64,000 nucleotides of DNA from Desulfatiglandales bacterium (GCA_963662465.1 OY759599.1:3296001-3360000); one strand, 5' to 3'. Counted from the stretch's first letter, positions 1,081 to 58,082 are shown. Translations and numbers: made by a program. Notes: generated from the letters alone by a model not told the origin.

Positions 1081-1166
1081 CGCGAACCAAACGCTCCACC
1101 GGACCCCTGGACGCGGAGGGGTAATCTCGAAGTCCTGTGCGGGGGGCCGGTGAGCTTGTCGTTCGC
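1081..1166 (+). repeat. attC-like site (family 1), intron inserted in R'
   Basis: cgcgAAC caaacgctccaccgg...ccggtgagcttgtc GTTcgc imperfect hairpin. Confidence 0.85.
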
Positions 1167-3393
1167 GTGCGACGTGATGTCGCGTAAGTAGCTGTTTTGT
1201 ATATCAATATAAACCATATAACAAAACCCTGTTTTCTGCAACAGGTATTCTACCGGGACATGCGTCCGGAGTAATCCGGGGGTGTGAAGCTCTCGGGACA
1301 ATGAAGCCCGCGGAATTTTCCGGGAGAGGAAACCGTGAGGGGACCTCAACTCTGCAAGCATCATGCGGTAAGGGAGCTAGAATTGAGCAGTACGGTTAAC
1401 ACATGTGAATCGCTGCAGCGTCGTCACGAGAACAAGCCTAAGATGCTGAAAGGCTTGGACCAAAAAAGGTACGTGGCCAGGAACGGAGGCTGCGAACTCC
1501 TCCGTCGCGGATGTTGTGCCACCGGCGTAAAGGCGGAACCTAACCTGCTCTGGTACTTACGCGGAACATGGTAAGCCCGTAATCCTCCCCACGGGGAAAG
1601 CGAACCGCAAGGTGAGCCCATGGGGTTGCGGGTAAAGGATGTCAGAAAAAGCGAATGCCTCGTTGTAATGATGGGGATACGGATTGAAGGTGTAACTACC
1701 TACATGATCCGGCTCGAAAGAGAGCAGACTTCTGACCGGTGTTCCATTGCGAGATAATCTGTCGAATCTTTAAACAGGGGAAAGCAAATGACGGTGGCCG
1801 TTTTGGCGACTGGTGCACCTTTGGACGGAACAAACTGGTGGAAATCCATAAACTGGAAAACCGTCGGCGAGCACGTTAGAAGACTGCAGGTGCGTATCGC
1901 AAAGGCTGTGAAGGAAAAGCGATGGGGAAAAGTCAAGGTGATACAGTGGCTTTTGACTCATTCGTTTTATGCCAAGTTGTTGGCTATCAAGCGCGTTACT
2001 TCCAACCGGGGTAAACGCACACCGGGAGTGGATAAAGTCATATGGTCCACCCACATTGACAAAATGCAGGCGGTAAACGACCTGCGCCGAAGAGCCTACC
2101 GACCCAAACCGCTGCGCCGAATTTACATACCCAAGAAAAACGGCAAGAAACGCCCATTGGGCATTCCCACAATGAAGGACAGAGCCATGCAGGCGTTGTA
2201 CAAATTGGCGCTTGATCCGGTGGCGGAAACCACCGCCGATCCGAACTCTTACGGGTTCAGACCCTATCGGGGATGTGCGGATGCCATCGGTCAGTGTTTT
2301 ATTTCTCTGGCCAAGCGCCACTCACCCGTATGGATTCTGGAGGGAGATATAAAGGCCTGTTTTGATGAAATCAGCCATCAATGGATGCTCGAAAATATCC
2401 CTATGGATAAACGGACGCTTCAGAAATGGCTGAAATCCGGTTATGTGGAAGGAGGCAAGCTCTATCCAACTTACAGAGGAACCCCGCAAGGCGGGATTAT
2501 CTCTCCAACATTGGCTAATATGGTCCTGGATGGTCTGGAAGCGGCAGCCAAAAGTACCGCCCCGATAAGAATCCAGGGCAATATACGGTCCAAGATAAAC
2601 GTAATCCGTTACGCTGATGATTTCATCATCACCGGGAATTCCAGAGAGATGCTAAATGAGATCAAGCTGGAAATTGAAGCATTTATGGAGCGAAGAGGAC
2701 TTTCGCTTTCAGCGGAAAAGACGTTGATCACAAGGATAGAAGAAGGATTTGATTTTCTCGGACAGAATCCACGCAAATACCAGGGGAAGCTCTTGATAAA
2801 GCCCTCTCGCAAAAACGTGAAAGCCTTTTTAGGCAATATCCGGCAAACAATCCGAAAGCATGCGGCATCAAGAGCCGACATTCTGATTAAAGTACTCAAT
2901 CCCAAAATCAGGGGGTGGGCCAATTACCACAGGCATGTGGTTTCCGGTAGAACTTTCGGGCTTGTAGATCACCGTATCTACAGCTATATTTGGCAATGGA
3001 TGAGGAGGAAACATTCGGGCAAGAGTAAGAGTTGGCTGGTGGATAAATACTGGTCAAAAGGATCTCGCCCGTGGTCCTTTTCAGCGGTGATCAAGGACGG
3101 CTATGCGAAATCCGCCAGAATTGAACTTGAGAAAGCTTACGACGTCAAGATAAAACGCCATGTCAAAATTCGAGGGGATGCGAACCCCTTCGATCCGAAA
3201 TATGAACAATATTTCAGGAAACGATATGCCCAACGCAGTCAGCAGAAGGCAGACAGGCGTAAAGAGCATAAAACGTCACAACCGGGTAGCCCCGAAAGGG
3301 CTTGCCTTTGGAATGCTTGAGCCGTGTGCGTTTAACGGCGCACGCACGGTTCTTAGAGGGCTGGGGGATGGTGACATCCCCTGGCTACTCGAC
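1167..3393 (+). mobile_element. Group II intron A1 (CL1-type IIB), intact
   Basis: Starts GTGCG; D5 gagccgtgtgcg...cgcacggttc; D6 ends ctactcgAC; contains the RT ORF. Confidence 0.95.
1788..3320 (+). CDS. ltrA: Group II intron reverse transcriptase/maturase, no En domain
   Basis: INW..V..LQ.RIAKA N-terminus, RPLGIP, GTPQGG, RYADD, NPKIRGWANY maturase motif; 510 aa. Confidence 0.95.
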   Translation: MTVAVLATGAPLDGTNWWKSINWKTVGEHVRRLQVRIAKAVKEKRWGKVKVIQWLLTHSFYAKLLAIKRVTSNRGKRTPGVDKVIWSTHIDKMQAVNDLRRRAYRPKPLRRIYIPKKNGKKRPLGIPTMKDRAMQALYKLALDPVAETTADPNSYGFRPYRGCADAIGQCFISLAKRHSPVWILEGDIKACFDEISHQWMLENIPMDKRTLQKWLKSGYVEGGKLYPTYRGTPQGGIISPTLANMVLDGLEAAAKSTAPIRIQGNIRSKINVIRYADDFIITGNSREMLNEIKLEIEAFMERRGLSLSAEKTLITRIEEGFDFLGQNPRKYQGKLLIKPSRKNVKAFLGNIRQTIRKHAASRADILIKVLNPKIRGWANYHRHVVSGRTFGLVDHRIYSYIWQWMRRKHSGKSKSWLVDKYWSKGSRPWSFSAVIKDGYAKSARIELEKAYDVKIKRHVKIRGDANPFDPKYEQYFRKRYAQRSQQKADRRKEHKTSQPGSPERACLWNA

Positions 3394-3876
3394 CGGAAAG
3401 CGCAGTCAGCGGCAGGTCAAGAGTCGGAAAGCGCAGTCAGCGGCAGGTCAAGAGTTCCTTTTGTTGGCTACATTGTCTTTTTGGGAGCCAAAACGAAGCA
3501 GAATGGGAGGCGCTTTTTTGGAGTACGTAAGGCTTATCTCAGGTTTTGGGTATCCCAAAATCTTTGAGGCATCCAAAAGGTACCATATTGTATCCTGAAA
3601 GAATCCGTGAGGATTGACGAAATGGATCATTTGGCTGGTTTTCACTGCCTTGTCGTTTACGGTTTCACTTGGCAAGATGGAATGAGTTGGTGTACTTGAG
3701 CGCCATAATGCACGTTGTTCTTTCCTGCATCAGGTTATCTGGCGAATTAATCGCCTCCTTTTATTCTGTGCTTATGTTTGACAGTCATAGCCAAAACATA
3801 AGAAAACCAAATACCACAAAGTTGGCCGGTTGCCATTGACGTCACTGCGAACATTTATCAAGAGAAAGGAGCAATT

Positions 3877-6093: not shown

Positions 6094-6179
6094 GGCGAAC
6101 CAAACGCTCCACCAGACGCCTGAAAGTCCTGCAGTCCCAGCGGGGGCCGGTGGAGGCGCTGGTGAGCTCGTCGTTCGCT
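6094..6179 (+). repeat. attC-like site (family 1), empty
   Basis: ggcgAAC...GTTcgct; same arms as the intron-occupied sites. Confidence 0.85.
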
Positions 6180-9712: not shown

Positions 9713-9743
9713 ACCATGAATTACTTATCGTAGAAGGGAAGCA

Positions 9744-10348: not shown

Positions 10349-10434
10349 CGCGAACCAAGCGCTGCACCAGACGCCTGATAATTGGGCGGTCCCAGCGGGG
10401 GCCGGAGGAGGCGCTGGTGAGCTTAACGTTCGAG
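10349..10434 (+). repeat. attC-like site (family 1), followed by an intron
   Basis: cgcgAAC caagcgctgcaccag...ctggtgagcttaac GTTcgag. Confidence 0.85.
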
Positions 10435-11399
10435 TTGCGACACGAAGTCGCTTTAAATATATGTTTTCACAGAAGAATCGTGGAAACCCGGTGTTCCTCC
10501 ACCGGCATCCTAGGGAGGCATGCTGCCGTTGCGCTGATGACGGGGTGTGAAGCCCTCCCGACAATGTACCGAGGACCTTTGAAGTTGGAAAGTCGGGACA
10601 GAAAGCGTGAGTGGACTGTTCCTCTGGAAGCCTCATCCGGATTAGGGCTGGGATTGACTGATATGGTCAGTATATTCAAACACCTGCAGTATCGTAAACA
10701 GCAACAAGCCAAAGAGGCCGATAGGCTTGGACCAAACGGTGTGCGGCCAGGTCGGGAGTCTCGAACGTACGCCCGGCGCGGATGTTGTGCCGCCGGTATA
10801 GGGGGTGGACCTAAGTCAGTTAACAGTATTTATTGCGGAACGTGGTAAGCTCGTAACATCGCCATAAAGTTTTGTGGCAAGCCAACCGTGAGGCAGGCCG
10901 CTGGTGTTGCGGGTGCAAAACGCCTTACCAAGCCAATGCCCTCCTGAATGGGTGGGATACGGAGTTATCTCCGGCCCGAAAGGGAGCTGAATTTTGGCGG
11001 GTGCTCATGCGTGAGATAATTTGAAGAACCTTCTGATGGGAGAATAGCAAATGAGGGGTCTTCGTGACTGGTACACTTCCACAACAAGCTCCAAACTGGC
11101 AACTCATTAACTGGGATGTCGTCAAGAGTAACGTGAAAAGGCTTCAAATGCGTATTGCGCAGGCGGTTAAGGCGCAAAGATGGAAAAAGTGAAGGCTCTA
11201 CAGTGGCTTCTCTCCCATTCCTTCTCTGCGAAGTTATTGGCAAAAAAGGCCAAGAATGTTCGCCTTGCTTAGCCAATAACAACCGCCGGACTCTTCTGAT
11301 GAGAAAGGGTCTTACTGAGGGCTTGAGCCGTATGCTGGGAAACTCGCGTCTACGGTTCTGAGGAGGGAAGGAGGCCGGATGGCCTCCGACCTATCCGGT
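10435..11399 (+). mobile_element. Group II intron (third CL1-type lineage) with internally deleted RT ORF
   Basis: Starts TTGCGACACG; retains RT N-terminal codons (NWQLINWDVVKSNVKRLQMRIAQAVK) fused to the ORF end; D5/D6 at ~11325-11399; 3' end approximate. Confidence 0.85.
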
Positions 11400-13754: not shown

Positions 13755-13840
13755 GGCGAACCAAACGCTGCACCAGACGCCTGATACTTCGGCGGTTTCG
13801 GCGGGGGCCGGAGGAGGCGCTGGTGACCTTAACGTTGTGC
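13755..13840 (+). repeat. attC-like site (family 1), empty
   Basis: ggcgAAC...GTTgtgc. Confidence 0.85.
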
Positions 13841-18597: not shown

Positions 18598-18682
18598 GCA
18601 CAACCAAACGCTGCACCGGACCCCTAGACGCAACGGGGTAATGGGGACGTTGGGTGCAGGGGCCGGTGAGCTTGTCGTTGGA
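18598..18682 (+). repeat. attC-like site (family 1), intron inserted in R'
   Basis: gcacAAC...GTTgga; R'' complements the upstream R' GTTGTGC. Confidence 0.85.
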
Positions 18683-19935
18683 TTGCGACACGATGTCGCA
18701 TAGTTTGAGTGTATTCATGTAGTTACATGTAGTACCCGGTATGTTCCTACCGGACCCTACGCAGGCATGCTGCCGTTGCGCTGATGACGGGGTGTGAAGC
18801 CCTGCGGACAACGTACCGAATCGGGTTCAAATGGCGACAGGAGAACCCCTCCGGGAATCCTCCCGGTTAAGGGCTAGGGTCGGATGATATGGTGAAGGTA
18901 TCTGAATGTCTTTAAGCGTCGATTACAAGCGAAGGGCCTACGAGGATTAATAGGTCTTATGCCGCTGCCCAGTGTCAGCGGATGTGGTCAGGTTGCAGGT
19001 CTGCTAACGGCCTGCACGGAACTGTTGTACCACCGGCGTAGAGGGCGCACCTAAGTCATCCACAGGATCAACTATGTGGAACGTGGAAACCCGTTCCCGT
19101 CGCCCCCTTTGGGGGCAGGCTAACGTAAGGCATGCTGTTGGCGGGCCGGAGTAGGAGGCTGAAAAAAGCGAATGCCGGGCTGTAATGGTCCGGATACCGG
19201 GTGAAACATTCCCGGCTCCGTAAGGAGGCAGACGTTCAGCGCGGTGCCCGATTACGTGAACACCGGAGGAATCAGATGAAAGCGGGGAAAGCAGCCAGTG
19301 AAACGGGCGAATGACGGCCCTTGAGGCTGGTGCGCCCCGTATGCCTTTGGCTACTCTGACAACCGGCCTGTAACGTGAAGTGGATGCAAATCCGCGGGAA
19401 TCCCCACCAGGGAAACCTTTTCGGGGGCTTGAGCCACGTGAGGTGAAAGCCTCATGCGTGGTTCTGAGGGTAATAGCGGCATAATACACACCTCCGTACG
19501 TTATTGAAAATTAAAGACTTGTTGTTTTGAGTTTCTTGAAAGCGGGCTCTTTGGAAACCCGGAATGAGCTGCCTTTTTTATCACTTCAGATTCAAGGTCC
19601 TTTTTTGAAATGATCCATGGAGCACCGGAACATACTCGCTTGGCGGGTAGAATCTCATGTTGTATAAGTCTCCAAACTTTGGTGCTGCCAATACCCAGCC
19701 TTTCGCTTGCTTCAGCTACCGTATATTCTTCTCGTCGCTGCCTCTCTCCTTCATGATATACAGGGATATTATGCCTATTTCGAAATGAACGCAACCTTAC
19801 CGGATTCCAGGTATATCCCTTTGTAGTCTTTGTACCCACACGGTTGAGAAAGGCCACGATGTGTTTATCAGGCATAATTCTAGCCAAATCGGCTAAAGCG
19901 TCATTATACGGTTGGATCCATCAGCAGCTTTAGCC

Positions 19936-21798
19936 TCACTGCAATGTGCGAGGAGCACGGCTACTGGCTGCTTTCTTGATGCGATGATTCATCTGATCCG
20001 TCCTAACCAAACGTCTATCTGCTGTCGATAGAGATGCTGTAGAAAGCTGAAGCTCTTTTTTAAGATTCACAATTTCTTGGGAAGGCAGCCATTTATTCTT
20101 CCTATTCCGGTTTTCCATATCTAATTGCGCGAATGCAAGAGGAAGCTGATCGATCGATCCACAAACTATATTGACGTAATCGGCGTGTTCCAGATTATAT
20201 GCCAGAGCCGCTTCTGCCGGTAGATGTTCCAGATCCTGACCAAGATTTTTCCGTCCACTGCGCCGTCGTTCTCCATGCTTCATTGTTCCAAAGAAGTTTT
20301 CGAGCAGTTCGTTGGTTCGACTCATAAGCCGTATGCCGCCGCCTGTTCTTTCCGGCAAACATATGCTGTGCCCCCAAAGACTATCACCATGCGTGTCAAT
20401 ATGTTTGATTATAATATCAATAGCTTCCCGAATATCTTTTCCCGGGCCTCGTTTTGGCCGGCGATCTTTAAGGGCAGTCGTCCATGTTTCAAACTGATAC
20501 CGCATCTCGTTAAGGTCTTCTATTGATTCCTTATCCGGGAGTTCTTTTGCCAACCGCAATTGATTTCGCAGCTCATCGAATAAAGCAGCACGGCGGTGCA
20601 ACTGTTTGACAGTTTGACGAAAGGGCACTTCACAAGAAACCTTCGAAGCGATCCTCCTAAGCCGACGAATCATGCGCACAACATGCTTATCATTCGGAGG
20701 AATGCGAAGAAATGCATCTATTGCTCGCAGAGCAACCATACACCTGTTGAAAAAACTCAAATACGGTCTGTCAAAAGGAAAATCCAGGCCTGAAAGATCT
20801 GCCTTATAGTCGATTATCCACTGTGCTATGTTTCGTACAACGGCAAGGCCATCTCGTCCCGGTGGGAGACGATAGTCATCCCTCTCTTGCCAATCCAGAA
20901 CCGCCTGCCGTGTTTCATTGATCTCAAAGCCTATCTCTCGCCCGATCTCACGGACTAAGTTATTGATTTTAGGTCGTACTTTTGTACGCCGGAAATGGTC
21001 CCGCAAAGCGGAATGGTCAGGTTTTATAAGGTCTTTACCAATGTCGGCAAGAAAGTGTTGATGGCAAGCTAACACGGGTATATCCAATTGCATCTCAGAT
21101 ACGAGTTCGTCGATGGCCGGCGATACCGCGCGTCCCAAGTCGCGCATGGCTCCGCAAGGCGGGCCGAATCGACTGACCGTATCCCGCATGCAGGGTAACA
21201 AAAGATCGGCTCGTTCAGTTGAAATTTTCCAGGCGCCAAGCACCCATTTTCTCCAACCAGCCATCACAACAAATAGGGTCCCTCGACCGGCTTCTCCAGT
21301 GGCATCCACTTGCATCGGCCAACCCCCATCCGCCTCCAGGACCCCTTTCAATTGCTCAGCCCGCACGTGATGAAGTCTGAGCAAGTATTCCAAAAAGTAT
21401 CGTGTCAGATTGCTAACCTCACCGCAAGACAATTTGATGCCGTGCCTTTCCTTTAATTCTGCTTTTATTTCCTCTCTCTGTTTATAGCCGAGCAGCCTAT
21501 TGAGACCCACATAAACCATTACGTCATAACCGACAATGCCGTTTGGCATAATGGTCCGAACGACCGATTCTGCTCTCTTGGTAAACAATGTCCCATCATC
21601 ATTACGGCACCGCTCCGAACATACATGTACCGTTTCCCTAACATTAAACGTACCATGCTCGATGGTCCGTCCTTCATGCACAAACGTTTTTTGTACACGC
21701 ATCGGTCCATTGCAGAGTTCACATACCCCAACCTCATCCTTAGCAGATACAACGATATCCGCTAACCCGACCACTTGTTTAAAACAACTATCATTCAA
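19936..21798 (-). CDS. Putative DDE transposase (CxxH-type), 620 aa
   Basis: VDATG, MRDLG, CHQH, RTNELLENFF motifs; inside the TIRs. Confidence 0.7.
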   Translation of the reverse strand: MNDSCFKQVVGLADIVVSAKDEVGVCELCNGPMRVQKTFVHEGRTIEHGTFNVRETVHVCSERCRNDDGTLFTKRAESVVRTIMPNGIVGYDVMVYVGLNRLLGYKQREEIKAELKERHGIKLSCGEVSNLTRYFLEYLLRLHHVRAEQLKGVLEADGGWPMQVDATGEAGRGTLFVVMAGWRKWVLGAWKISTERADLLLPCMRDTVSRFGPPCGAMRDLGRAVSPAIDELVSEMQLDIPVLACHQHFLADIGKDLIKPDHSALRDHFRRTKVRPKINNLVREIGREIGFEINETRQAVLDWQERDDYRLPPGRDGLAVVRNIAQWIIDYKADLSGLDFPFDRPYLSFFNRCMVALRAIDAFLRIPPNDKHVVRMIRRLRRIASKVSCEVPFRQTVKQLHRRAALFDELRNQLRLAKELPDKESIEDLNEMRYQFETWTTALKDRRPKRGPGKDIREAIDIIIKHIDTHGDSLWGHSICLPERTGGGIRLMSRTNELLENFFGTMKHGERRRSGRKNLGQDLEHLPAEAALAYNLEHADYVNIVCGSIDQLPLAFAQLDMENRNRKNKWLPSQEIVNLKKELQLSTASLSTADRRLVRTDQMNHRIKKAASSRAPRTLQ

Positions 21799-21833
21799 AC
21801 GATGCGCCTGATGCCTTAGGTAGACCAGCGTTT

Positions 21834-25497: not shown

Positions 25498-25559
25498 GGC
25501 TCGGGGATGGCAACATCCCCCGGCTACCCGGCCCCCCCCTCAAAATCCAACGATTTACC

Positions 25560-30252: not shown

Positions 30253-30325
30253 GGCTCGGGGATGGCAACATCCCCCGGCTACCCGGCGTATTCTTTTAAG
30301 TGTGTCGAGAGATGGAGGAAAAACA

Positions 30326-41049: not shown

Positions 41050-41134
41050 GGTTAACCAAACGCTGCACCAGACGCCTGATACTTGGGCGGTTCCGGCGGG
41101 GGCAGGTGGAGGCGCTGGTGAGCTTGTCGTTGGC
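41050..41134 (+). repeat. attC-like site (family 1), intron inserted in R'
   Basis: ggttAAC...GTTggc. Confidence 0.85.
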
Positions 41135-41767
41135 ATGCGACGTGATGTCGCGTAAGTAGCAGTTTTATATATTGATATAAACCATATAACAAAACCCTGT
41201 TTTCTGCAACAGGCATTCTACCGGGACATGCGTCCGGAGTAATCCGGGGGTGTGAAGCTCTCGGGACAATGAAGCCCGCGGAATTTTCCGGAAGAGGGAA
41301 CCGTGAGGGGACCTCAACTCTGCAAGCATCATGCGGTGAGGGAGCTAGAATTGAGCAGTACGGTTAACACATGTGAATCGCTGCAGCGTCGTCACGAGAA
41401 CAAGCCTAAGATGCTGAAAGGCTTGGACCAAAAGGTACGTGGCCAGGAACGGAGGCTGCGAACTCCTCCGTCGCAGATGTCGTGCCACCGGCGTAGGGGC
41501 GGAACCTAACCTGCTCGGGTACTTACGCGGAACATGGTAAGCCCGTAATCCTCCCCACGGGGAAAGCGAACCGCAAGGTGAGCCCATGGGGTTGCGGGTA
41601 AAAGATGTCAGAAAAAGCGAATGCCTTGTTGTAATGATGGGGATACGGATTGATGGTAATCACCGACATGATCCGGCTCGAAAGAGAGCAGACTTCTGAC
41701 CGGTGTTCCATTGCGAGATAATCTGTAGAATCTTCAAACAGGGGAAAGCAGCCAGTGAAACGGGCGA

Positions 41768-43626
41768 ATGACGGTGGCCGTTCTGGCGACTGGTGCACCT
41801 TTGGACGGAACAAACTGGTGGAAATCCATAAACTGGAAAACCGCCGGGGAGCATGTTAGAAGACTGCAGGTGCGTATCGCAAAGGCTGTGAAGGAAAAGC
41901 GATGGGGAAAAGTCAAGGTGATACAGTGGCTTTTGACTCATTCGTTTTATGCCAAGTTGTTGGCTATCAAGCGCGTTACTTCCAACCGGGGTAAACGCAC
42001 ACCGGGAGTGGATAAAGTCATATGGTCCACCCACATTGACAAAATGCAAGCGGTAAACGACCTGCGCCGAAGAGCCTACCGACCCAAACCGCTGCGCCGA
42101 ATTTACATACCCAAGAAAAACGGCAAGAAACGCCCATTGGGCATTCCCACAATGAAGGACAGAGCCATGCAGGCATTGTACAAATTGGCGCTTGATCCGG
42201 TGGCGGAAACCACCGCCGATCCGAACTCTTACGGGTTCAGACCCTATCGGGGATGTGCAGATGCCATCGGTCAGTGTTTTATTTCTCTGGCCAAGCGCTA
42301 CTCACCCGTATGGATTCTGGAGGGAGATATAAAGGCCTGTTTTGATGAAATCAGCCATCAGTGGATACTCGAAAATATCCCGATGGATAAACGGACGCTT
42401 CAGAAATGGCTGAAAGCCGGGTATGTAGAAGGAGGCAAGCTCTATCCGACATACAGAGGAACCCCGCAAGGCGGCTTATGCAAAGCTTTGCATAACCCGC
42501 CTTATGCCAAGTTGCCGATTATGCAAAGTAAACCGCTAAAGCTACCAGATTTCCAACACGTTCACTGAGTTTACTTTGCATAATATCACGGGTACCTCAA
42601 ACTTGAAATCCAATTAAACGATGCAGCATCCTTGGTTTATTTTGGATAAAATGATCTGGTTTTTTCCGACAAACGATTTTGTGAGCTTTTCGCTCAGTCA
42701 TCATTAGCAAAGATTATGCTAAGTAAATCAAAAAGAAACCCTTGAATTACAATGCGTTTTATGGCTTACTTTGCATAATTACTTTCTTTGCATAAGGCGG
42801 GATTATCTCTCCAACATTGGCTAATATGGTCCTGGATGGTCTGGAAGCGGCAGCCAAAAGCACCGCCCCGATAAGAATTCAGGGAAATATACGGTCCAAG
42901 ATAAACGTAATCCGCTACGCTGATGATTTTATCATCACCGGGAATTCCAGAGAGATGCTAAATGAGATCAAGCTGGAAATTGAAGCATTTATGGAGCGAA
43001 GAGGTCTTTCGCTTTCAGCGGAAAAGACGTTGATCACAAGGATAGAAGAAGGATTTGATTTTCTCGGACAAAGTTCACGCAAATACGGAGGAAAACTTTT
43101 GATAAAGCCCTCTCGCAAAAACGTGAAAGCCTTTTTAGGCAATATCCGGAAAACAATCCGAAAGCATGCGGCATCAAGAGCCGACATTCTGATTAAAGTA
43201 CTCAATCCCAAAATCAGGGGGTGGGCCAATTACCACAGGCATGTGGTTTCCGGTAGAACTTTCGGGCTTGTAGATCACCGTATCTACAGCTATATTTGGC
43301 AATGGATGAGGAGGAAACATTCGGGCAAGAGTAAGAGTTGGCTGGTGGATAAATACTGGTCAAAAGGATCTCGCCCGTGGTCCTTTTCAGCGGTGATCAA
43401 GGACGGCTATGCGAAATCCGCCAGAATTGAACTTGAGAAGGCTTACGACGTCAAGATAAAACGCCATGTCAAAATTCGAGGGGATGCGAACCCCTTCAAT
43501 CCGAAATATGAACAATATTTCAGGAAACGATATGCCCAACGCAGTCAGCAGAAGGCAGACAGGCGTAAAGAGCATAAAACGTCACAACCGGGTAGCCCCG
43601 AAAGGGCTTGCCTTTGGAATGCTTGA
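41768..43626 (+). pseudogene. ltrA: RT/maturase interrupted at PQGG
   Basis: Two halves match the intact RT. Confidence 0.9.
42476..42801. mobile_element. Non-coding element with dif/RIT-like sites, orientation 1
   Basis: ttatgcaaag/ctttgcataa arms flanking 6-bp spacers. Confidence 0.8.
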
Positions 43627-43737
43627 GCCGTGTGCGTTTAACGGCGCACGCACGGTTCTTAGAGGGCTGGGGGATGGCAACATCCCCTGGCTACTCGACC
43701 AGACCCGCTGGACAGCGGGGGAACTTAACGTCGAAAA

Positions 43738-46126: not shown

Positions 46127-46732
46127 AGAAAGGCCGGGCTTGCTAATTTGGCCGATCAGGTGCGCCAATGCTAAGTTCAGGTTTTCGCACTGGGGTAGCT
46201 TTGGCGTGGATTATCCGGTTCTATGCCTTTGTTACGTCTGTATGCGTAGGGATTCGAATGTACAAAGGAATAAGTCGTCATGTTTTATGAAAGTGAGGCC
46301 TAATTACTCCGTGATCCCGTGTAGTTAAAAACTTCGAGATCGGTTATGGGGATAGGGAGGAGCCTCACAGCTCCCCCCTCCCACACCACCGTACATACGG
46401 GTCCGTATACGGCGATTCGGCTGGTCAGAGCAGGCAAGGATAAAACAGGTTCCGCCCTACCGGGTTTTCCAGAATGCGACGTTATCGACCTTTCAGCTAC
46501 TGCTGCATTAGACCAATAAGTACACGTTCTTTGACAACCACAACCATTTACCCCTGCCATTCGGCAGGTGGCACCGTTCGGGCCTTCACCGGAGTGAGGC
46601 CTCCCTTTATTCAGGGCTCGTTTCTCCGGCTTAATATGCCCTCTGCTGACTCCCGTTACGCGGTGGGCTCCCCTTTCGGTTCGCTCACTCGTAGTTTCCG
46701 CAATCTGTCGAGTCCATTTGTTTGTGTTTCCC

Positions 46733-48738
46733 CGCATAAGTCTAAATGTTGTGGGGTTGTATAACCCATCAAAATTAAAAGGCGTTTTCGGTAAACAAGA
46801 ATGCATTATGAACCTTCATAACTTGAATCCAAGGTAAGTCAAATGTTTGGCCGTTGGCTAATTCAAAGGGACTTTTATGAGCATTTTTTGCGCCAGGTAA
46901 AAATGGGACAAAATTCCTGATAGTCGCATGTGCTCGAAAGAAAAGACTTGCCCATTTCTTATCTCGAAAACTCTCAATTTGTTTTAGTTTACGTTTGATT
47001 CCTTTTAAATAATTGTCAACAATGGAGGTTGTTTGTTTTATCCCATTTCTATTTTTATGAGAGGTATAATGAGTGGCATTTTCTTTTAATTCTACTACCC
47101 TCTTTTTTAGTAATGGATGAGAAAATGCATCGTCATCTAATGCCTTAATCTTTACTTCCAAGTTAACTTTAGATGTGGATGTTTTCAAAACTTTCTTAAA
47201 TTTTTTATAAAGCTTGTCCACTTCTTGGTCGGTACATTTTGATTCTTTTTGATATTTTGATAGTGCATCGTAGAAGTTTTTCAAACAATGACGATGGCAA
47301 TATCCGACCCAAATGTTATGGAATACGGTCTTGATAGCATTGGTTGAGGCTTTCCACTTATCTTTTGTTACACCAAGGATTTTGAAGTCGATTTTTTGCA
47401 AAAAATCCTCAAATGAACCGCACAGGTTTTCTTCATCAACATGATCAACATAATCGGAGTGCCATACTAATAAATTTTCAGGATCGACCATAACTACAGA
47501 ATAAGTTCTTAAATTTGGTTCTTTTTCAAAGCCCTCATCTTCCTGTAGATATCCTGAGCCTTTCACTCCTGCTCTTGTTAGTATTGTTGCAGGATGAAGT
47601 GTTCCTGCCCATCGATTCCAGTTCAAGATGGTCTGTTTGCTTTTGACACTTTTTTTGCCAATAATTTTAAGGCTTTCGATGGCTCCTTGAATGCTCGCAT
47701 TAAAACGGTACATATTCCGAAATACGTGCCCAATAATCTCTATACCAAAATTCTTTTCCCTTGGGAGAAAGCTGGGAACAAGAGAGAACTTTTGTTTGCA
47801 CTTCCGGCATTGTATCATGCGGATTGGGAATGTCTGTTGTTCTCCTCCATTCATTATTGTTTTTCGAGGATTCCCGCGGAAACCAGATAAAATATATTCT
47901 TTAGGTCCAGAACATGTTGAATTATGGCCTGTGTGGTGATCATATTTATCGAGTTTATCTAATACTTCAATGCGAAACTTCTTACTATCTTTTACGAGAG
48001 CATGATAGCTTTCGGTGTTATTATAAGGAAAGATATATGTTTGATTTCCTCGTTTAGAAACAAGGTCTTCCATTTTCTTTTTTACATTTTCGATTATGGA
48101 TTTATCAAAAGATTTTAACATCCCTATCTCAAATGCAATACTGATTGTACTATCACGACTTTTTACATTATTCAATTTTTTAGTAATATTACTTATCATT
48201 GAACGAATTGAATAAAAGATTCTAATTTTCTGTCGATCCCGTTGTGTTTTTGGAATGCTTTTTTTCCCTTTTATTGGCTTACAAATATCCCATAATTGAC
48301 TTATTAACCTACCAAGTTCATCAATAAGAGCAGACAATGTTACATAAAAATATTGCAATGATTGAAACATCTCCCTTTCATTGATCCATGATCTGATGGC
48401 ATTAATGCATTTCTCAATTTCAAAGAAAATCTCAGGATACTGTTTTGGATCGTAATAACATTGTCTTGCAAGTCTGTTTTGAGCTTTGTCCAACATTGTC
48501 AAAGCTCTCTTAATATTATTAATCATGTGCAACCTCTCTAATTTAACATAGACTGTTGCACTATGATTATGCACACTTATCAAAAAAAGTCCCTAACTTT
48601 TTTCCGCTAAGGCGAATTCAGGAAAAAATGTTTGGCCTCACGAAATGCGCTTTGATTAGGATATTGATTCTGAACCGTTTAACAGATGAAATAATTTCAA
48701 TATGTTAGAGTAAACCCCACAACATTTAGACTTATGCG
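46733..48738 (-). mobile_element. 2006-bp IS, copy 2
   Basis: Same TIRs as copy 1; 8-bp TSD tgtttccc. Confidence 0.9.
46775..48583 (-). CDS. Putative DDE transposase, 602 aa
   Basis: Near-identical to 6451-8259. Confidence 0.8.
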   Translation of the reverse strand: MISVHNHSATVYVKLERLHMINNIKRALTMLDKAQNRLARQCYYDPKQYPEIFFEIEKCINAIRSWINEREMFQSLQYFYVTLSALIDELGRLISQLWDICKPIKGKKSIPKTQRDRQKIRIFYSIRSMISNITKKLNNVKSRDSTISIAFEIGMLKSFDKSIIENVKKKMEDLVSKRGNQTYIFPYNNTESYHALVKDSKKFRIEVLDKLDKYDHHTGHNSTCSGPKEYILSGFRGNPRKTIMNGGEQQTFPIRMIQCRKCKQKFSLVPSFLPREKNFGIEIIGHVFRNMYRFNASIQGAIESLKIIGKKSVKSKQTILNWNRWAGTLHPATILTRAGVKGSGYLQEDEGFEKEPNLRTYSVVMVDPENLLVWHSDYVDHVDEENLCGSFEDFLQKIDFKILGVTKDKWKASTNAIKTVFHNIWVGYCHRHCLKNFYDALSKYQKESKCTDQEVDKLYKKFKKVLKTSTSKVNLEVKIKALDDDAFSHPLLKKRVVELKENATHYTSHKNRNGIKQTTSIVDNYLKGIKRKLKQIESFRDKKWASLFFRAHATIRNFVPFLPGAKNAHKSPFELANGQTFDLPWIQVMKVHNAFLFTENAF

Positions 48739-49186
48739 TGTTTCCCGACCAATAGGCCGGGCTCGTCAGGGCTATGACTCGAAATGTTCCTGACGCCAGG
48801 GTTTTGTTTTACCGGTTTTCCCTTATATTCCGGTAGATTTCAGTTGCAGTTCCCTACGAGACGCAACGGGCCTCCCGGGGTAAACACGTGTCTTTCCGCA
48901 CACGAGCGCCGACAACGTGCCTGGCCTATAGTAGTTAGAGGACTTTGTTCTGTGTTGCGGACTCGTCCCACCAGACCCGCCTCACTCGATTTCTGTTCGT
49001 CGCCCCGTGCGTTTGCGGTGCCCTGCCGCAGCAAGGCCACTGCCTCTCCAGGCCCGTTACCGGGTACCCGGTTGTGATACCGCTACACCCTTCGCCACTA
49101 CCTGGCTGGGTCTGGGACTTGCGTAAAATATCGGAAGCATGGTACATTGCGCGCACCCTTAAGAACACGTGCCGTGCCCGGCACAC

Positions 49187-49270
49187 AACCAAACGCTCCA
49201 CCAGACGCCTGACAGTCCTGCGGTCCTGGCAGGGGCCGAAGGAGGAGGCGCTGGTGAGCTTGTCGTTGGC
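49187..49270 (+). repeat. attC-like site with an intron at each end
   Basis: ggtt|AAC split by C1; GTTggc| followed by A5. Confidence 0.85.
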
Positions 49271-49903
49271 ATGCGACGTGATGTCGCGTAAGTAGCTGTT
49301 TTATATATTGATATAAACCATATAACAAAACCCTGTTTTCTGCAACAGGCATTCTACCGGGACATGCGTCCGGAGTAATCCGGGGGTGTGAAGCTCTCGG
49401 GACAATGAAGCCCGCGGAATTTTCCGGAAGAGGGAACCGTGAGGGGACCTCAACTCTGCAAGCATCATGCGGTGAGGGAGCTAGAATTGAGCAGTACGGT
49501 TAACACATGTGAATCGCTGCAGCGTCGTCACGAGAACAAGCCTAAGATGCTGAAAGGCTTGGACCAAAAGGTACGTGGCCAGGAACGGAGGCTGCGAACT
49601 CCTCCGTCGCAGATGTCGTGCCACCGGCGTAGGGGCGGAACCTAACCTGCTCGGGTACTTACGCGGAACATGGTAAGCCCGTAACCCTCCCCACGGGGAA
49701 AGCGAACCGCAAGGTGAGCCCATGGGGTTGCGGGTAAAGGATGTCAGAAAAAGCGAATGCCTCGTTGTAATGATGGGGATACGGATTGATGGTAATCACC
49801 GACATGATCCGGCTCGAAAGAGAGCAGACTTCTGACCGGTGTTCCATTGCGAGATAATCTGTAGAATCTTCAAACAGGGGAAAGCAGCCAGTGAAACGGG
49901 CGA

Positions 49904-51761
49904 ATGACGGTGGCCGTTTTGGCGACTGGTGCACCTTTGGACGGAACAAACTGGTGGAAATCCATAAACTGGAAAACCGCCGGGGAGCATGTTAGAAGAC
50001 TGCAGGTGCGTATCGCAAAGGCTGTGAAGGAAAAGCGATGGGGAAAAGTCAAGGTGATACAGTGGCTTTTGACTCATTCGTTTTATGCCAAGTTGTTGGC
50101 TATCAAGCGCGTTACTTCCAACCGGGGTAAACGCACACCGGGAGTGGATAAAGTCATATGGTCCACCCACATTGACAAAATGCAAGCGGTAAACGACCTG
50201 CGCCGAAGAGCCTACCGACCCAAACCGCTGCGCCGAATTTACATACCCAAGAAAAACGGCAAGAAACGCCCATTGGGCATTCCCACAATGAAGGACAGAG
50301 CCATGCAGGCATTGTACAAATTGGCGCTTGATCCGGTGGCGGAAACCACCGCCGATCCGAACTCTTACGGGTTCAGACCCTATCGGGGATGTGCGGATGC
50401 CATCGGTCAGTGTTTTATTTCTCTGGCCAAGCGCTACTCACCCGTATCGATTCTGGAGGGAGATATAAAGGCCTGTTTTGATGAAATCAGCCATCAATGG
50501 ATGCTCGAAAATATCCCGATGGATAAACGGACGCTTCAGAAATGGCTGAAAGCCGGGTATGTAGAAGGAGGCAAGCTCTATCCGACATACAGAGGAACCC
50601 CGCAAAGCGGGTTATGCAAAGCTTTGCATAACCCGCCTTATGCAAAGAAAGTAATTATGCAAAGTAAACCGTAAAAGCCATAATAATTCAAGAGATTCTT
50701 GTTGATTTGCTTAGCATAATCTCCACTTATGGTGAATGAGAAAAAGTTCAAAAAATCATTAGACAAAACAAAGGAGCTATTTTTATCCAAAACAAACGAA
50801 GAATGCTGCATCATTTACTTGGCTTTCAAGTCTGAAGTAGTCGTGATATTATGCAAAGTAAATTCAGTGCATATGCTTGAAATATTGCACCTTAACTGAT
50901 TTACTTTGCATAATCGTTAACTTTGCATAAGGCGGGATTATCTCTCCAACATTGGCTAATATGGTCCTGGATGGTCTGGAAGCGGCAGCCAAAAGCACCG
51001 CCCCGATAAGAATTCAGGGAAATATACGATCCAAAATAAACGTAATCCGCTACGCTGATGATTTTATCATCACCGGGAATTCCAGAGAGATGCTAAATGA
51101 GATCAAGCTGGAAATTGAAGCATTTATGGAGCGAAGAGGTCTTTCGCTTTCAGCGGAAAAGACGTTGATCACAAGGATAGAAGAAGGATTTGATTTTCTC
51201 GGACAAAGTTCACGCAAATACGGAGGAAAACTTTTGATAAAGCCCTCTCGCAAAAACGTGAAAGCCTTTTTAGGCAATATCCGGAAAACAATCCGAAAGC
51301 ATGCGGCATCAAGAGCCGACATTCTGATTAAAGTACTCAATCCCAAAATCAGGGGGTGGGCCAATTACCACAGGCATGTGGTTTCCGGTAGAACTTTCGG
51401 GCTTGTAGATCACCGTATCTACAGCTATATTTGGCAATGGATGAGGAGGAAACATTCGGGCAAGAGTAAGAGTTGGCTGGTGGATAAATACTGGTCAAAA
51501 GGATCTCGCCCGTGGTCCTTTTCAGCGGTGATCAAGGACGGCTATGCGAAATCCGCCAGAATTGAACTTGAGAAGGCTTACGACGTCAAGATAAAACGCC
51601 ATGTCAAAATTCGAGGGGATGCGAACCCCTTCGATCCGAAATATGAACAATATTTCAGGAAACGATATGCCCAACGCAGTCAGCAGAAGGCAGACAGGCG
51701 TAAAGAGCATAAAACGTCACAACCGGGTAGCCCCGAAAGGGCTTGCCTTTGGAATGCTTGA
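49904..51761 (+). pseudogene. ltrA: RT/maturase interrupted at the PQGG motif
   Basis: Two halves match the intact RT. Confidence 0.9.
50612..50936. mobile_element. Non-coding dif/RIT-like element, orientation 2
   Basis: Interior is a diverged reverse complement of the 42476 copy. Confidence 0.8.
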
Positions 51762-51979
51762 GCCGTGTGCGTTTAACGGCGCACGCACGGTTCTTAGAGG
51801 GCTGGGGGATGGCAACATCCCCTGGCTACTCGACTTGATGAGCTTCTGCAAAGGAGAAGGAAGATGTTAAGCGTGTATTTGCCGGTAATTGGAAACATCA
51901 ATAAGAGGCCTCGTATCTCGGACTTCGCTTCAGCGCGTTAGCCACTTGAAAATCAGCCTGTAAAGGAGAATGCTTAGCT

Positions 51980-52869: not shown

Positions 52870-52954
52870 CGCCAACCAAACGCTCCAGCGGACCCCTGAA
52901 AGTCTGTCGGTTCTAGCGGGGACCGGTGGAGGGGCCGCTGAACTTGTCGTTCGC
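52870..52954 (+). repeat. attC-like site (family 1), intron inserted in R'
   Basis: cgccAAC...cagcgg...ccgctg...GTTcgc. Confidence 0.85.
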
Positions 52955-53587
52955 GTGCGACGTGATGTCGCGTAAGTAGCTGTTTTATATATTGATATAA
53001 ACCATACAACAAAACCCTGTTTTCTGCAACAGGTATTCTACCGGGACATGCGTCCGGAGTAATCCGGGGGTGTGAAGCTCTCGGGACAATGAAGCCCGCG
53101 GAATTTTCCGGAAGAGGGAACCGTGAGGGGACCTCAACTCTGCAAGCATCATGCGGTGAGGGAGCTAGAATTGAGCAGTACGGTTAACACATGTGAATCG
53201 CTGCAGCGTCGTCACGAGAACAAGCCTAAGATGCTGAAAGGCTTGGACCAAAAGGTACGTGGCCAGGAACGGAGGCTGCGAACTCCTCCGTCGCAGATGT
53301 CGTGCCACCGGCGTAGGGGCGGAACCTAACCTGCTCGGGTACTTACGCGGAACATGGTAAGCCCGTAATCCTCCCCACGGGGAAAGCGAACCGCAAGGTG
53401 AGCCCATGGGGTTGCGGGTAGAGGATGTCAGAAAAAGCGAATGCTCCGTTGTAATGATGGGGATACGGATTGATGGTAATCACCGACATGATCCGGCTCG
53501 AAAGAGAGCAGACTTCTGACCGGTGTTCCATTGCGAGATAATCTGTAGAATCTTCAAACAGGGGAAAGCAGCCAGTGAAACGGGCGA

Positions 53588-55445
53588 ATGACGGTGGCCG
53601 TTCTGGCGACTGGTGCACCTTTGGACGGAACAAACTGGTGGAAATCCATAAACTGGAAAACCGCCGGGGAGCATGTTAGAAGACTGCAGGTGCGTATCGC
53701 AAAGGCTGTGAAGGAAAAGCGATGGGGAAAAGTCAAGGTGATACAGTGGCTTTTGACTCATTCGTTTTATGCCAAGTTGTTGGCTATCAAGCGCGTTACT
53801 TCCAACCGGGGTAAACGCACACCGGGAGTGGATAAAGTCATATGGTCCACCCACATTGACAAAATGCAAACGGTAAACGACCTGCGCCGAAGAGCCTACC
53901 GACCCAAACCGCTGCGCCGAATTTACATACCCAAGAAAAACGGCAAGAAACGCCCATTGGGCATTCCCACAATGAAGGACAGAGCCATGCAGGCATTGTA
54001 CAAATTGGCGCTTGATCCGGTAGCGGAAACCACCGCCGATCCGAACTCTTACGGGTTCAGACCCTATCGGGGATGTGCGGATGCCATCGGTCAGTGTTTT
54101 ATTTCTCTGGCCAAGCGCTACTCACCCGTATGGATTCTGGAGGGAGATATAAAGGCCTGTTTTGATGAAATCAGCCATCAATGGATGCTCGAAAATATCC
54201 CGATGGATAAACGGACGCTTCAGAAATGGCTGAAAGCCGGGTATGTAGAAGGAGGCAAGCTCTATCCGACATACAGAGGAACCCCGCAAGGCGGGTTATG
54301 CAAAGCTTTGCATAACCCGCCTTATGCAAAGAAAGTAATTATGCAAAGTAAACCGTAAAAGCCATAATAATTCAAGAGATTCTTGTTGATTTGCTTAGCA
54401 TAATCTCCACTTATGGTGAATGAGAAAAAGTTCAAAAAATCATTAGACAAAACAAAGGAGCTATTTTTATCCAAAACAAACGAAGAATGCTGCATCATTT
54501 ACTTGGCTTTCAAGTCTGAAGTAGTCGTGATATTATGCAAAGTAAATTCAGTGCATATGCTTGAAATATTGCACCTTAACTGATTTACTTTGCATAATCG
54601 TTAACTTTGCATAAGGCGGGATTATCTCTCCAACATTGGCTAATATGGTCCTGGATGGTCTGGAAGCGGCAGCCAAAAGCACCGCCCCGATAAGAATTCA
54701 GGGAAATATACGGTCCAAGATAAACGTAATCCGCTACGCTGATGATTTTATCATCACCGGGAATTCCAGAGAGATGCTAAATGAGATCAAGCTGGAAATT
54801 GAAGCATTTATGGAGCGAAGAGGTCTTTCGCTTTCAGCGGAAAAGACGTTGATCACAAGGATAGAAGAAGGATTTGATTTTCTCGGACAAAGTTCACGCA
54901 AATACGGAGGAAAACTTTTGATAAAGCCCTCTCGCAAAAACGTGAAAGCCTTTTTAGGCAATATCCGGAAAACAATCCGAAAGCATGCGGCATCAAGAGC
55001 CGACATTCTGATTAAAGTACTCAATCCCAAAATCAGGGGGTGGGCCAATTACCACAGGCATGTGGTTTCCGGTAGAACTTTCGGGCTTGTAGATCACCGT
55101 ATCTACAGCTATATTTGGCAATGGATGAGGAGGAAACATTCGGGCAAGAGTAAGAGTTGGCTGGTGGATAAATACTGGTCAAAAGGATCTCGCCCGTGGT
55201 CCTTTTCAGCGGTGATCAAGGACGGCTATGCGAAATCCGCCAGAATTGAACTTGAGAAGGCTTACGACGTCAAGATAAAACGCCATGTCAAAATTCGAGG
55301 GGATGCGAACCCCTTCGATCCGAAATATGAACAATATTTCAGGAAACGATATGCCCAACGCAGTCAGCAGAAGGCAGACAGGCGTAAAGAGCATAAAACG
55401 TCACAACCGGGTAGCCCCGAAAGGGCTTGCCTTTGGAATGCTTGA
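53588..55445 (+). pseudogene. ltrA: RT/maturase interrupted at PQGG
   Basis: Two halves match the intact RT. Confidence 0.9.
54296..54620. mobile_element. Non-coding dif/RIT-like element, orientation 2
   Basis: Perfect ggcggg direct repeats at 54290-54295 and 54615-54620. Confidence 0.8.
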
Positions 55446-55607
55446 GCCGTGTGCGTTTAACGGCGCACGCACGGTTCTTAGAGGGCTGGGGGATGGTGAC
55501 ATCCCCGGCTACTCGACCCAGAATATTGGCTACAACTGGATCGCAGTGGCGACCAAATAAGTACACAGTGAAGTGTATAAAGATCCATATCCGAGGGCCG
55601 AAAATAG

Positions 55608-56350: not shown

Positions 56351-57176
56351 ATAGGGATAGGGAGGAGCCTCACAGCTCCCCCCTCCCACCACCGTACATA
56401 CGGGTCCGTATACGGCGATTCGGCTGGTCAGAGCAGGCAAGGATAAAACAGGTTCCGCCCTACCGGGTTTTCCAGAATGCGACGTTATCGACCTTTCAGC
56501 TACTGCTGCATTAGACCAATAAGTACACGTTCTTTGACAACCACAACCATTTACCCCTGCCATTCGGCAGGTGGCACCGTTCGGGCCTTCACCGGAGTGA
56601 GGCCTCCCTTTATTCAGGGCTCGTTTCTCCGGCTTAATATGCCCTCTGCTGACTCCCGTTACGCGGTGGGCTCCCCTTTCGGTTCGCTCACTCGTAGTTT
56701 CCGCAATCTGTCGAGTCCATTTGTTTGTGTTTCCCGACCAATAGGCCGGGCTCGTCAGGGCTATGACTCGAAATGTTCCTGACGCCAGGGTTTTGTTTTA
56801 CCGGTTTTCCCTTATATTCCGGTAGATTTCAGTTGCAGTTCCCTACGAGACGCAACGGGCCTCCCGGGGTAAACACGTGTCTTTCCGCACACGAGCGCCG
56901 ACAACGTGCCTGGCCTATAGTAGTTAGAGGACTTTGTTCTGTGTTGCGGACTCGTCCCACCAGACCCGCCTCACTCGATTTCTGTTCGTCGCCCCGTGCG
57001 TTCGCGGTACCCTGCCGAAGCAAGGTCACTGCCTTCCCAGGCACCGTTACCGAATACCCGGTTGTGATACCGCTACACCCTTCGCCACTACCTGGCTGGG
57101 TCTGGGACTTGCGTAACATATCGGAAGCATGATATATTACGCGCACCCTTAAGAACACGTGCCGTGCCCGGCACAC
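56351..57176 (-). mobile_element. ORF-less group IIC-attC intron C2 (826 nt)
   Basis: Uninterrupted copy of C1; removing it restores ggtt|aaccaaacg. Confidence 0.9.
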
Positions 57177-57257
57177 AACCAAACGCTCCACCAGACGCCT
57201 GATAGTCCGGCGGTTCCGGCGAGGGCTGGCAGAGGCGCTGGTGAGCTTACCGTTGGC
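57177..57257 (+). repeat. attC-like site with an intron at each end
   Basis: AACcaaacgctccaccag...ctggtgagcttacc GTTggc. Confidence 0.85.
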
Positions 57258-58082
57258 TTGCGACACGGAGTCGCATAGTTTAAGTGTATTCATGTAGTTA
57301 CATGTATTACCCGGTATGTCCCTACCGGACCCTACGCAGGCATGCTGCCGTTGCGCTGATGACGGGGTGTGAAGCCCTGCGGACAACGTACCGAATTGGG
57401 TTTGAATGGCGACAGGAGAACCCCTCCGGGAATCCTCCCCGGTTAAGGGCCAGGGTCAGATGATATGGTGAAGGTATCTGAATGTCTTTAAGCGTCGATC
57501 ACAAGCGAAGGGCCTACGAGGATTAACAGGTCTTATGCCGCTGCCCAGTGTCAGCGGATGTGGTCAGGTTGCAGGTCTGCTAACTGCCTGCACGGAACTG
57601 TTGTACCACCGGCGTAGAGGGCGCACCTAAGTCATCCATTGGATCAACTATGTGGAACGTGGAAACCCGGTCCCGCCGCCCCTTTTGGGGGCAGGCTAAC
57701 CGTAAGGCATGCTGTTGGCGGGCCGGAGTAGGAGGCTGAAAAAAGCGAATGCCGGGCTGTAATGGTCCGGATACCGGGTGAAACATTCCCGGCTCCGTAA
57801 GGAGGCAAACGTTCAGCGTGGTGCCCGATCACGTGAACACCGGAGGAATCAGATGAAAGCGGGGAAAGCAGCCAGTGAAACGGGCGAATGACGGCCCTTG
57901 AGGCTGGTGCGCCCCGCGCGCCTTTGGCTACTCTGACAGCCGGCTTGTAACGTGAAGTAGATGCAAATCCGCGGGAATCCCAACCAGGGAAACCTTTTCG
58001 GGGGCTTGAGCCACGTGAGGTGAAAGTCTCATGCGTGGTTCTGAGGGGGGAATGGGACTGAGAGGTCCCTGACCTACCCGAT
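57258..58082 (+). mobile_element. ORF-less group II intron B4 with an alternative D6
   Basis: TTGCG start; ends gacctacccgAT. Confidence 0.9.

Follow-up and report, generated by a model that had tools for sequence, protein, structure and literature searches.

Group II introns occupy attC sites of a chromosomal cassette array

Analysis of a 64,000-nucleotide (nt) stretch of the genome of a Desulfatiglandales bacterium (GCA_963662465.1, OY759599.1:3296001-3360000; G000:C1:3296001-3360000 in our numbering), referred to below as the window, revealed group II introns inserted into the recombination sites (attC) of an integron. The genome consists of one contig of 8.16 Mb. An integron integrase (IntI) is encoded on the minus strand 7.4 kb before the window (TIGR02249, 444 bits with a cut-off of 265; Pfam agrees). 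The window is thus part of a chromosomal cassette array in which the plus strand is the top strand and has the cassette sense. At least four further integron integrases are encoded elsewhere in the genome, and genome-wide the attC sites of the main sequence family cluster in arrays.

Eleven recognizable attC sites were found in the window, nine of them occupied by introns and two empty (Table 1). They are imperfect AAC...GTT inverted repeats of 73 to 81 nt, counted from AAC to GTT, with bulged arms and variable centers; in the bottom-strand folds, the R boxes are paired and the arms bulged. A tuned attC scan, which is blind to strand, returned 16 candidates at score 18 compared with a background of 3 to 4 hits per shuffled window. 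Rfam, which has no attC family, gave no hit for the empty attC at E values up to 1. The identity of the sites was judged by their defining features, namely, the inverted repeat, the array behind intI, and the complementarity between the R'' box and the cassette start. This complementarity was scored for the cassettes of introns I1, I4, and I9, the other cassettes being interrupted by further elements. R'' of the cassette's own attC complements the TTnnn start at 7 of 7 positions for the I1 cassette and at 6 of 7 positions for each of the other two. The TTGGC opening the I9 cassette is complemented by R'' GCCAAC of the attC occupied by I10. Removal of I1 leaves the junction GTTCGC|C, and, as an earlier reading made from the sequence alone (the sequence-only reading) had noted, the next R'', GGCGAAC of the empty attC (6094-6100), is its reverse complement.

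Rfam detected 13 group II introns in the window, 11 on the plus strand (RF02012 with RF00029) and 2 on the minus strand (RF02001 with RF00029). All plus-strand copies scored 75 to 124 bits for RF02012 (gathering score 34) and 45 to 67 bits for RF00029 (gathering score 40). Nine directly follow an R' box, with the 5' exons GTTCGC (twice), GTTGGC (four times), GTTGGA, GTTAGC, and GTTCGAG; I6 and I7 directly abut the preceding intron. The sequence-only reading had described 11 introns at nine attC sites, all on the top strand and behind these exons, and Rfam together with boundary mapping reproduced this list to the base. The presence of introns at attC R' boxes in the window is thus confirmed. 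Two unrelated attC families are hit, as had also been claimed: the attC at 33451-33530 is a member of a second sequence family. The intron extents required correction. I3 and I4 extend past their domain 5/6 hits, a serine-recombinase element being located just after domain 5, and end at 25532 and 30287; two minus-strand class C introns had been missed.

Two side observations concern intron starts. I8 (41135) and I9 (49271), located at two different attC sites, begin with ATGCG and not with GTGCG, and their 5' splice site is probably disabled. After the empty attC at 13759-13836, the sequence GTGCGTTGC... (window 13837-13850) resembles a group II 5' end, with no Rfam hit there.

Table 1. Group II introns and attC sites of the window (RT, reverse transcriptase; ORF, open reading frame; EBS1, exon-binding site 1; IS, insertion sequence)
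Feature	Position	Strand	Remarks
Intron I1	1167..3393	+	Lineage A; intact 510-aa RT, 1788-3320; EBS1 GCGAAC, 1492-1497
Intron I2	10435..11399	+	Lineage C, without ORF; 5' TTGCG, 3' GGT; EBS1 CTCGAAC, 10760-10766
Intron I3	18683..25532	+	Lineage B; EBS1 GCTAAC, 19003-19008; serine-recombinase element, 19471-25497, after domain 5
Intron I4	26313..30287	+	Lineage B; EBS1 GCTAAC, 26634-26639; serine-recombinase element, 27086-30252
Intron I5	33531..35756	+	Lineage A; intact RT, 34151-35683
Intron I6	35757..37981	+	Lineage A; begins on the base after the last I5 base
Intron I7	37982..38806	+	Lineage B, without ORF; EBS1 GTCAAC, 38303-38308
Intron I8	41135..43699	+	Lineage A; 5' ATGCG; RT broken; IS91-like element directly after
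Intron I9	49271..51834	+	Lineage A; 5' ATGCG; RT broken
Intron I10	52955..55517	+	Lineage A; RT broken
Intron I11	57258..58082	+	Lineage B, without ORF; EBS1 GCTAAC, 57579-57584; IS91-like element directly after
Class C intron	46346..49184	-	Behind bottom-strand ...GGTTGT of R'' of attC 49187; 2006-bp IS-like insert, 46733-48738
Class C intron	56351..57174	-	Without ORF; behind bottom-strand ...GGTTGT of R'' of attC 57177
attC	1085..1166	+	Main family; occupied by I1; R'' GCGAAC, 1081-1086; R' GTTCGC, 1161-1166
attC	6098..6178	+	Main family; empty; R' GTTCGC|T
attC	10353..10434	+	Occupied by I2; R' GTTCGAG
attC	13759..13839	+	Main family; empty; GTTGTG|C
attC	18602..18682	+	Occupied by I3; GTTGGA
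attC	26232..26312	+	Occupied by I4; GTTAGC
attC	33451..33530	+	Second sequence family; carries tandem I5-I6-I7; GTTGGC
attC	41054..41134	+	Occupied by I8; GTTGGC
attC	49187..49270	+	Occupied on both sides: class C intron at R'', I9 at R'
attC	52874..52954	+	Occupied by I10; GTTCGC
attC	57177..57257	+	Occupied on both sides: class C intron at R'', I11 at R'

The plus-strand introns encode a CL1-type reverse transcriptase

The reverse transcriptase (RT) ORFs of I1, I5, and I6 are open frames of 510 amino acids (aa) with a YADD motif. The ORFs of I8 to I10 are broken, and I2, I3, I4, I7, and I11 carry none. The I6 RT is identical to the I1 RT, and the I5 RT matches it at 495 of 511 aligned positions, stop included. 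Pfam analysis of the I1 protein predicted RVT_N, RVT_1, and GIIM domains and no HNH domain. Searching the Protein Data Bank (PDB) revealed the T.el4h RT (PDB 6ME0) as the closest solved structure, with 570.7 bits compared with 149 bits for LtrA and 99 to 121 bits for class C RTs. The alignment with T.el4h covers residues 7 to 485 of 510, YADD included, and ends at T.el4h residue 484 of 562. Since the I1 protein stops about where this alignment ends, it has no room for an endonuclease (En) domain. T.el4h and EcI5 are described as IIB1 introns with CL1 RTs (PMC8643678). Judged by its sequence, the plus-strand RT is of the CL1/IIB1 type, lacks an endonuclease domain, and is not of class C, an assignment based on the PDB search scores, the alignment with T.el4h, and the class labels of PMC8643678. 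The grouping with class C that the sequence-only reading had named as counterevidence was thus not observed. A plasmid search with the I1 RT returned only unlabelled relatives of about 55% identity and was uninformative on class.

A full-length lineage B intron of 2266 nt was found on the minus strand elsewhere in the genome (G000:C1:448698-450963). It contains an open 497-aa RT frame with YADD, and 263 of 486 residues of its RT are identical to the lineage A RT. This intron could be the driver of the ORF-less lineage B copies.

EBS1 is complementary to the R' box

The loops that the sequence-only reading had interpreted as exon-binding site 1 (EBS1) in I1, I2, and I3 are present as described (Table 1). 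They cap a hairpin that is flanked on either side by a conserved strand. When 11 divergent copies and relatives were aligned, all seven stem pairs change on both sides and 93.9% of the cells pair; the covariation score was reached in none of 500 shuffles, and slid controls were also far below it. Relatives inserted away from attC sites carry a loop that complements their own exon (CTCCCA with TGGGAG in L029, 6 of 6 positions; 5 of 6 positions in L009). The complementarity of the same loop to different exons in these relatives identifies it as EBS1.

In the window, EBS1 is complementary to its own exon at 7 of 7 positions in I2 and at 6 of 6 positions in I4. EBS1 of I7 (GTCAAC) pairs, with one G-U pair, with the original GTTGGC of the site and not with the end of I6. 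For all 28 regular junctions, pairing of EBS1 with the exon was scored at the three variable positions. It was found in 66 of 84 cells, compared with a permuted mean of 51.1, and this value was matched in none of 20,000 permutations. When each combination of EBS1 and intron-binding site 1 (IBS1) was counted once, 39 of 54 cells paired (p = 0.0015). EBS1 thus differs between lineages and species in step with the distal bases of R', which bears out the covariation with the target that had been proposed from the sequence alone.

All genomic copies are located at integron-type or tandem junctions

A genome-wide search revealed 29 5' ends of lineages A, B, and C, of which 19 are located at main-family attC sites, 3 at other attC-like sites, 4 at attI-type junctions, and 3 at tandem junctions. 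No copy (0 of 29) lies outside integron-type or tandem junctions. This tabulation of 5' exons had been suggested by the sequence-only reading, for which a majority of copies outside attC would have spoken against attC targeting. Insertions at attI-type junctions show that the target is the integron core site in general. Close to intI, the attI-type sequence forms a conserved block that occurs at about nine places, four of which are occupied; a fifth, near G000:C1 3200391, retains a remnant of a lineage A intron that consists of its first 9 nt. At the attC near 2371487, a lineage B intron directly follows ...GTCG, and the TTnnn bases are absent. This junction and the 9-nt remnant look like secondary deletions or recombination at the core.

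A sequence pattern defined 49 main-family attC sites, and in 16 of them (17 if I2 is counted) an intron directly follows GTTnnn. R' types that match known EBS1 variants are occupied in 12 of 20 cases and other types in 4 of 29 (Fisher p = 0.0015). Of 10 lineage A cases (EBS1 GCGAAC), 6 are located at GTTCG[CT], compared with none of 10 lineage B cases (EBS1 GCTAAC or GTCAAC; p = 0.011). Apart from one IS91-like pair, the observed 3' exons are all different. This diversity indicates that the intron-cassette junction was made many times. In a tally of the listed flanks, 11 of 19 non-tandem copies have a 3' exon that opens with C, at the position of intron-binding site 3.

Related introns in other genomes are associated with attC-like repeats

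Relatives with 55 to 85% RT identity were found in other genomes and metagenomes. Seven of them (L014, L016, L019, L020, L025, L026, and L028) are located behind the GTTnnn of attC-like repeats of other sequence families, with the EBS1 sequences CCTAAC, TTTAAC, CTTAAC, or GCTAAC. EBS1 of L028 pairs with its exon at 6 of 6 positions. A divergent intI is located 14.6 kb upstream of L014. The distance between GTT and L016 is 5 nt, which places this intron exactly at the sequence with which its EBS1 pairs (5 of 6 positions); the repeat in that genome was graded as attC-like only and not as an established attC. In RT trees of 12 rows, the attC-associated rows and L027, which lacks its 5' exon and has EBS1 CCTAAC, formed one clade (support 95/98), and the support was 94/96 when the intact lineage B RT was added and the partial L016 left out. 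L009, L011, L015, and L029, which are not located at attC, fall outside this clade.

The main attC family was detected in 8 of 10 genomes of the same genus. The 5' part of the lineage A intron was not found in four of five same-genus genomes searched (G003, G004, G005, G009, and G010), and one contained a 69% match. Judged from these comparisons, the intron expansion seems to be specific to the lineage of this genome. The I1 cassette was sought in 30 related genomes as an empty orthologous site and was not found; only the attC matched.

The introns probably retrohome to the integron core

We consider it likely that the plus-strand introns are retrohoming, endonuclease-less CL1/IIB1 introns whose homing site is the integron core on the top strand, recognized by pairing of EBS1 with R'. 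The sequence-guided attC targeting by a IIB lineage that the sequence-only reading had put forward is supported, as far as sequence comparison goes, by the intron class, EBS1, the 29 of 29 sites, and the covariation. The EBS1 loop NNNAAC, which resembles the R'' box of attC, would pair with the GTTNNN of R', and reverse splicing would place the intron exactly behind the sixth core base. The RT would be supplied by the intact lineage A copies and the one intact lineage B copy elsewhere in the genome, and the ORF-less B and C copies would be mobilized in trans, as in Thermosynechococcus elongatus. Because the RT lacks an endonuclease domain, cDNA synthesis would be primed from the replication fork. 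Of the 29 copies, 27 are on the strand marked by GC skew as the leading-strand template (origin near 5.74 Mb, terminus near 1.78 Mb), a bias that cannot be separated from array orientation. The 5' exon would survive insertion, so that a second intron can enter before the resident one and tandem arrays arise. The I5-I6-I7 tandem fits such repeated entry at a preserved 5' exon, since EBS1 of I7 pairs with the GTTGGC of the site. Being sense oriented, the intron would be spliced out of array transcripts.

The insertion point is located 5 nt beyond the G|TT crossover of IntI, on the cassette side. The intron is thus the first element of the downstream cassette and would therefore also move with it under IntI. 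Such movement would account for the presence of introns at attI-type junctions and for the mosaic flanks, in which an upstream block is common to I9 and I11 and a downstream IS91-like element is common to I8 and I11. IntI can accordingly account for part of the spread. That it accounts for the whole is unlikely. The introns would then be passive passengers descending from one or a few ancestral insertions at a cassette start, spread by IntI and by recombination between copies, and the EBS1 match would be a relic. The cassette-side position, the mosaic flanks, the four copies at attI-type junctions (the natural entry point of cassettes), and the probable splice-site defect and broken RT shared by I8 and I9 would all be expected from such passengers. 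The differing 3' exons at nearly every copy would not, nor would three tandem junctions beyond what IntI can make, the agreement between EBS1 variants and the R' variants at which they occur, both in this genome and across species, or the enriched occupancy at R' types complementary to EBS1.

An improbable alternative is a class C-like targeting guided by structure, in which the ribonucleoprotein reads the upstream top-strand attC hairpin and a short AAC/GTT core and the variable bases play a minor role. The same idea was raised by the authors of PMC7923331. The inverted repeat ends right at GTT at every site that is neither tandem nor of the attI type, and insertions occur in at least five unrelated attC-like families, which have no common intron-binding site 2 (IBS2) and for which no convincing exon-binding site 2 (EBS2) was found. 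The attI-type junctions, however, have no obvious hairpin, yet four of nine are occupied; the variable EBS1 bases track the target; and L016 is placed where its EBS1 pairs, 5 nt behind GTT, and not at a fixed distance from the hairpin. Wide insertion followed by retention of only those copies that landed at neutral attC junctions, which are non-coding and from which a sense-strand intron can splice out, is very improbable given the base-exact insertion, the absence of all 29 copies from other intergenic DNA, and the complementarity of EBS1 to the site.

Several observations weigh against retrohoming by EBS1-R' pairing. I8 and I9 share the first base A and an RT broken by the same insert although they occupy different attC sites, and retrohoming alone does not readily explain this. 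Pairing at the variable positions is poor at 6734663 (0 of 3) and at 6379417 and 441432 (1 of 3 each), and irregular junctions occur at attI-type sites (GTTCG| and GTTGTGC|), at 2371487 (...GTCG|TTGCG), and in L016 (GTT-TTAAA|). The repeat in the L016 genome is near-identical at 7 scattered places, of which 3 are occupied and only one is near an intI. The RT trees comprise just 12 rows, and every row was selected for its similarity to the lineage A RT. A candidate EBS2, ACAAGC, complements GCTTGT at positions -13 to -8 of the main-family attC (6 of 6) and in lineage B sits in the slot that holds EBS2 in L009, L015, and L028. This motif is invariant across the clade and in the outgroup L009, and in lineages A and C part of it falls within a conserved hairpin. 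It has no partner in the other attC families, across which a consistent EBS2 was sought and not found. No spliced, lariat, or empty-site junction was detected for window positions 1 to 10400 in the contigs of four read runs, one of them a metatranscriptome; these contigs all break at repeat borders, and none joins 1166 to 3394. The joints that they do contain have short sides (21 to 42 letters), fit repeats, and are uninformative on splicing either way.

Beyond retrohoming to the core, a broader reading is tentative, and we would sooner doubt it than adopt it. The endonuclease-less CL1 introns would form a clade of integron specialists whose EBS1 mimics R'' and invades the attC and attI core. 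EBS2 would have been largely abandoned in favor of the attC hairpin, giving a class C-like mode built on a IIB scaffold, and the introns would use two mobility systems, retrohoming and IntI-driven cassette traffic, since their landing point is always 5 nt into the next cassette and six of the seven R' bases stay intact. If this is true, cassettes would be a vehicle for the horizontal spread of introns, and introns a regular silent component of arrays.

Relation to known introns

The association of a CL1/IIB1 intron with attC is known from one published case. UHB.I2, reported by Sonbol and Siam in 2021 from a soda-lake metagenome, is a IIB1/CL1 intron with a 500-aa intron-encoded protein (IEP) located "immediately after an attC" in cassette orientation; the attC predicted by IntegronFinder overlaps the intron start by 2 nt (PMC7923331). 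By this published description, it shares with the introns studied here a CL1 IEP of about 500 aa, the cassette sense, and the position directly behind attC. Its boundaries, 5'-UUGCG...GU-3', are those of lineage C (I2), and lineage B shares the 5' UUGCG. The authors noted poor exon conservation, speculated on the hairpin, and proposed no EBS1-R' pairing. UHB.I2 is a single copy on a contig edge, whereas the introns described here number 29 across three lineages, are also found at attI-type junctions and in tandem, show EBS1 covariation, and have a clade of relatives. The view in the sequence-only reading that known attC-targeting introns belong to class IIC does not hold in view of UHB.I2. A 2015 review assigns attC targeting to class C only (PMC4424553). 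In the full-text literature searched, which excludes subscription journals, no account was found of the base-pairing rule, of such a clade or of occupancy on this scale, nor of attI-type junctions, tandem insertion, or a location on the cassette side.

Two known groups are comparable. Group IIC-attC introns of the S.ma.I2 type are specialized for attC and lack an endonuclease (PMC7923331, PMC4424553), as do the plus-strand introns. They differ in having a class C RT and a IIC ribozyme and in inserting into the bottom strand at R'' (TTGT/T), antisense, with a short EBS1 and a hairpin, whereas the plus-strand introns are of the CL1/IIB1 type and lie in sense orientation on the top strand behind R' GTTNNN with an EBS1 of 6 to 7 nt. 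The two minus-strand introns of the window are of the true IIC-attC type. TeI3/TeI4 of T. elongatus are likewise IIB1 introns that proliferated in one genome, mostly as ORF-less copies mobilized in trans, with lineages of diverged EBS and insertions into other mobile elements (PMC2882425). The TeI4h IEP has an En domain, unlike the RT described here, and TeI3/TeI4 use diverse homing sites and form nested twintrons in place of integron sites and head-to-tail tandems at a preserved 5' exon.

Targeting of attC by group II introns has been regarded as a specialty of class C, acting through DNA structure on the bottom strand. A IIB1/CL1 lineage would reach the same recombination site as class C introns from the other strand and by plain base pairing, which provides a testable case of convergent target choice. 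The extent exceeds that of earlier reports, with about one third of one attC family in the genome and 9 of 11 attC sites in the window occupied. The pairing could offer a natural, programmable targetron aimed at integron core sites. It would also link a retroelement to integrons, the intron riding in cassettes and being expected to splice out of cassette transcripts. A consequence for annotation is that much of the sequence in some chromosomal cassette arrays consists of introns and not of cassettes.

Class C introns and other elements at the same sites

The two minus-strand class C introns are located at R'' of attC sites whose R' is followed by I9 or I11, which leaves neither end of these sites free. 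The RT of this family, represented by a copy with a partial ORF, scored 335.6 bits with GsI-IIC and 107 bits with T.el4h. Genome-wide, 10 of 10 5' ends of the family follow TTGT, 6 of them in main-family attC sites. The conserved unit of the family opens with a small hairpin 28 nt before the GTGCG motif, so that its assigned 5' end is provisional.

IS91-like elements (Y2_Tnp, Zn_Tnp_IS91) were found at 43700-44937 and 58083-59319 of the window and at about 2835-4066 in L022. Their start hairpin lies directly behind GTTnnn after I8 and I11 and at the own attI of the window's integron (GTTGGA), which makes them a third kind of element at the same insertion point. A similar hairpin sequence follows GTTGAA at the attI-type site 2362643.

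The serine-recombinase element, which encodes a large serine recombinase (Resolvase, Recombinase, Zn_ribbon_recom), is about 3.17 kb long and lies just after domain 5, at the same point, in six ORF-less lineage B or C introns: I3, I4, and four genomic copies. A 13-base core, GTGGTTCTGAGGG, is present at both ends of the element, and the intact I7 and I11 carry a single core. The element appears to be site specific, with the intron serving as its attachment site. The copy in I3 holds a further insertion at 19893-22742.

The RT ORFs of I8, I9, and I10 are broken by an insert of 313 to 319 bp with inverted ends (CTTATGCAAAG...), located at 42475-42793 in I8 (about 319 bp, in opposite orientation), at 50616-50928 in I9, and at the same place in I10. 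A total length of 2565 nt is shared by two more lineage A introns in the genome. A repeat of 2006 bp occurs at 6409-8414 and 46733-48738 with 99.8% identity. One copy is inside a class C intron, and the other follows an empty attC at a distance of about 230 bp. The 602-aa protein encoded by the repeat gave only a weak match to DUF6431, below threshold, and the repeat is probably an insertion sequence of an undescribed kind.

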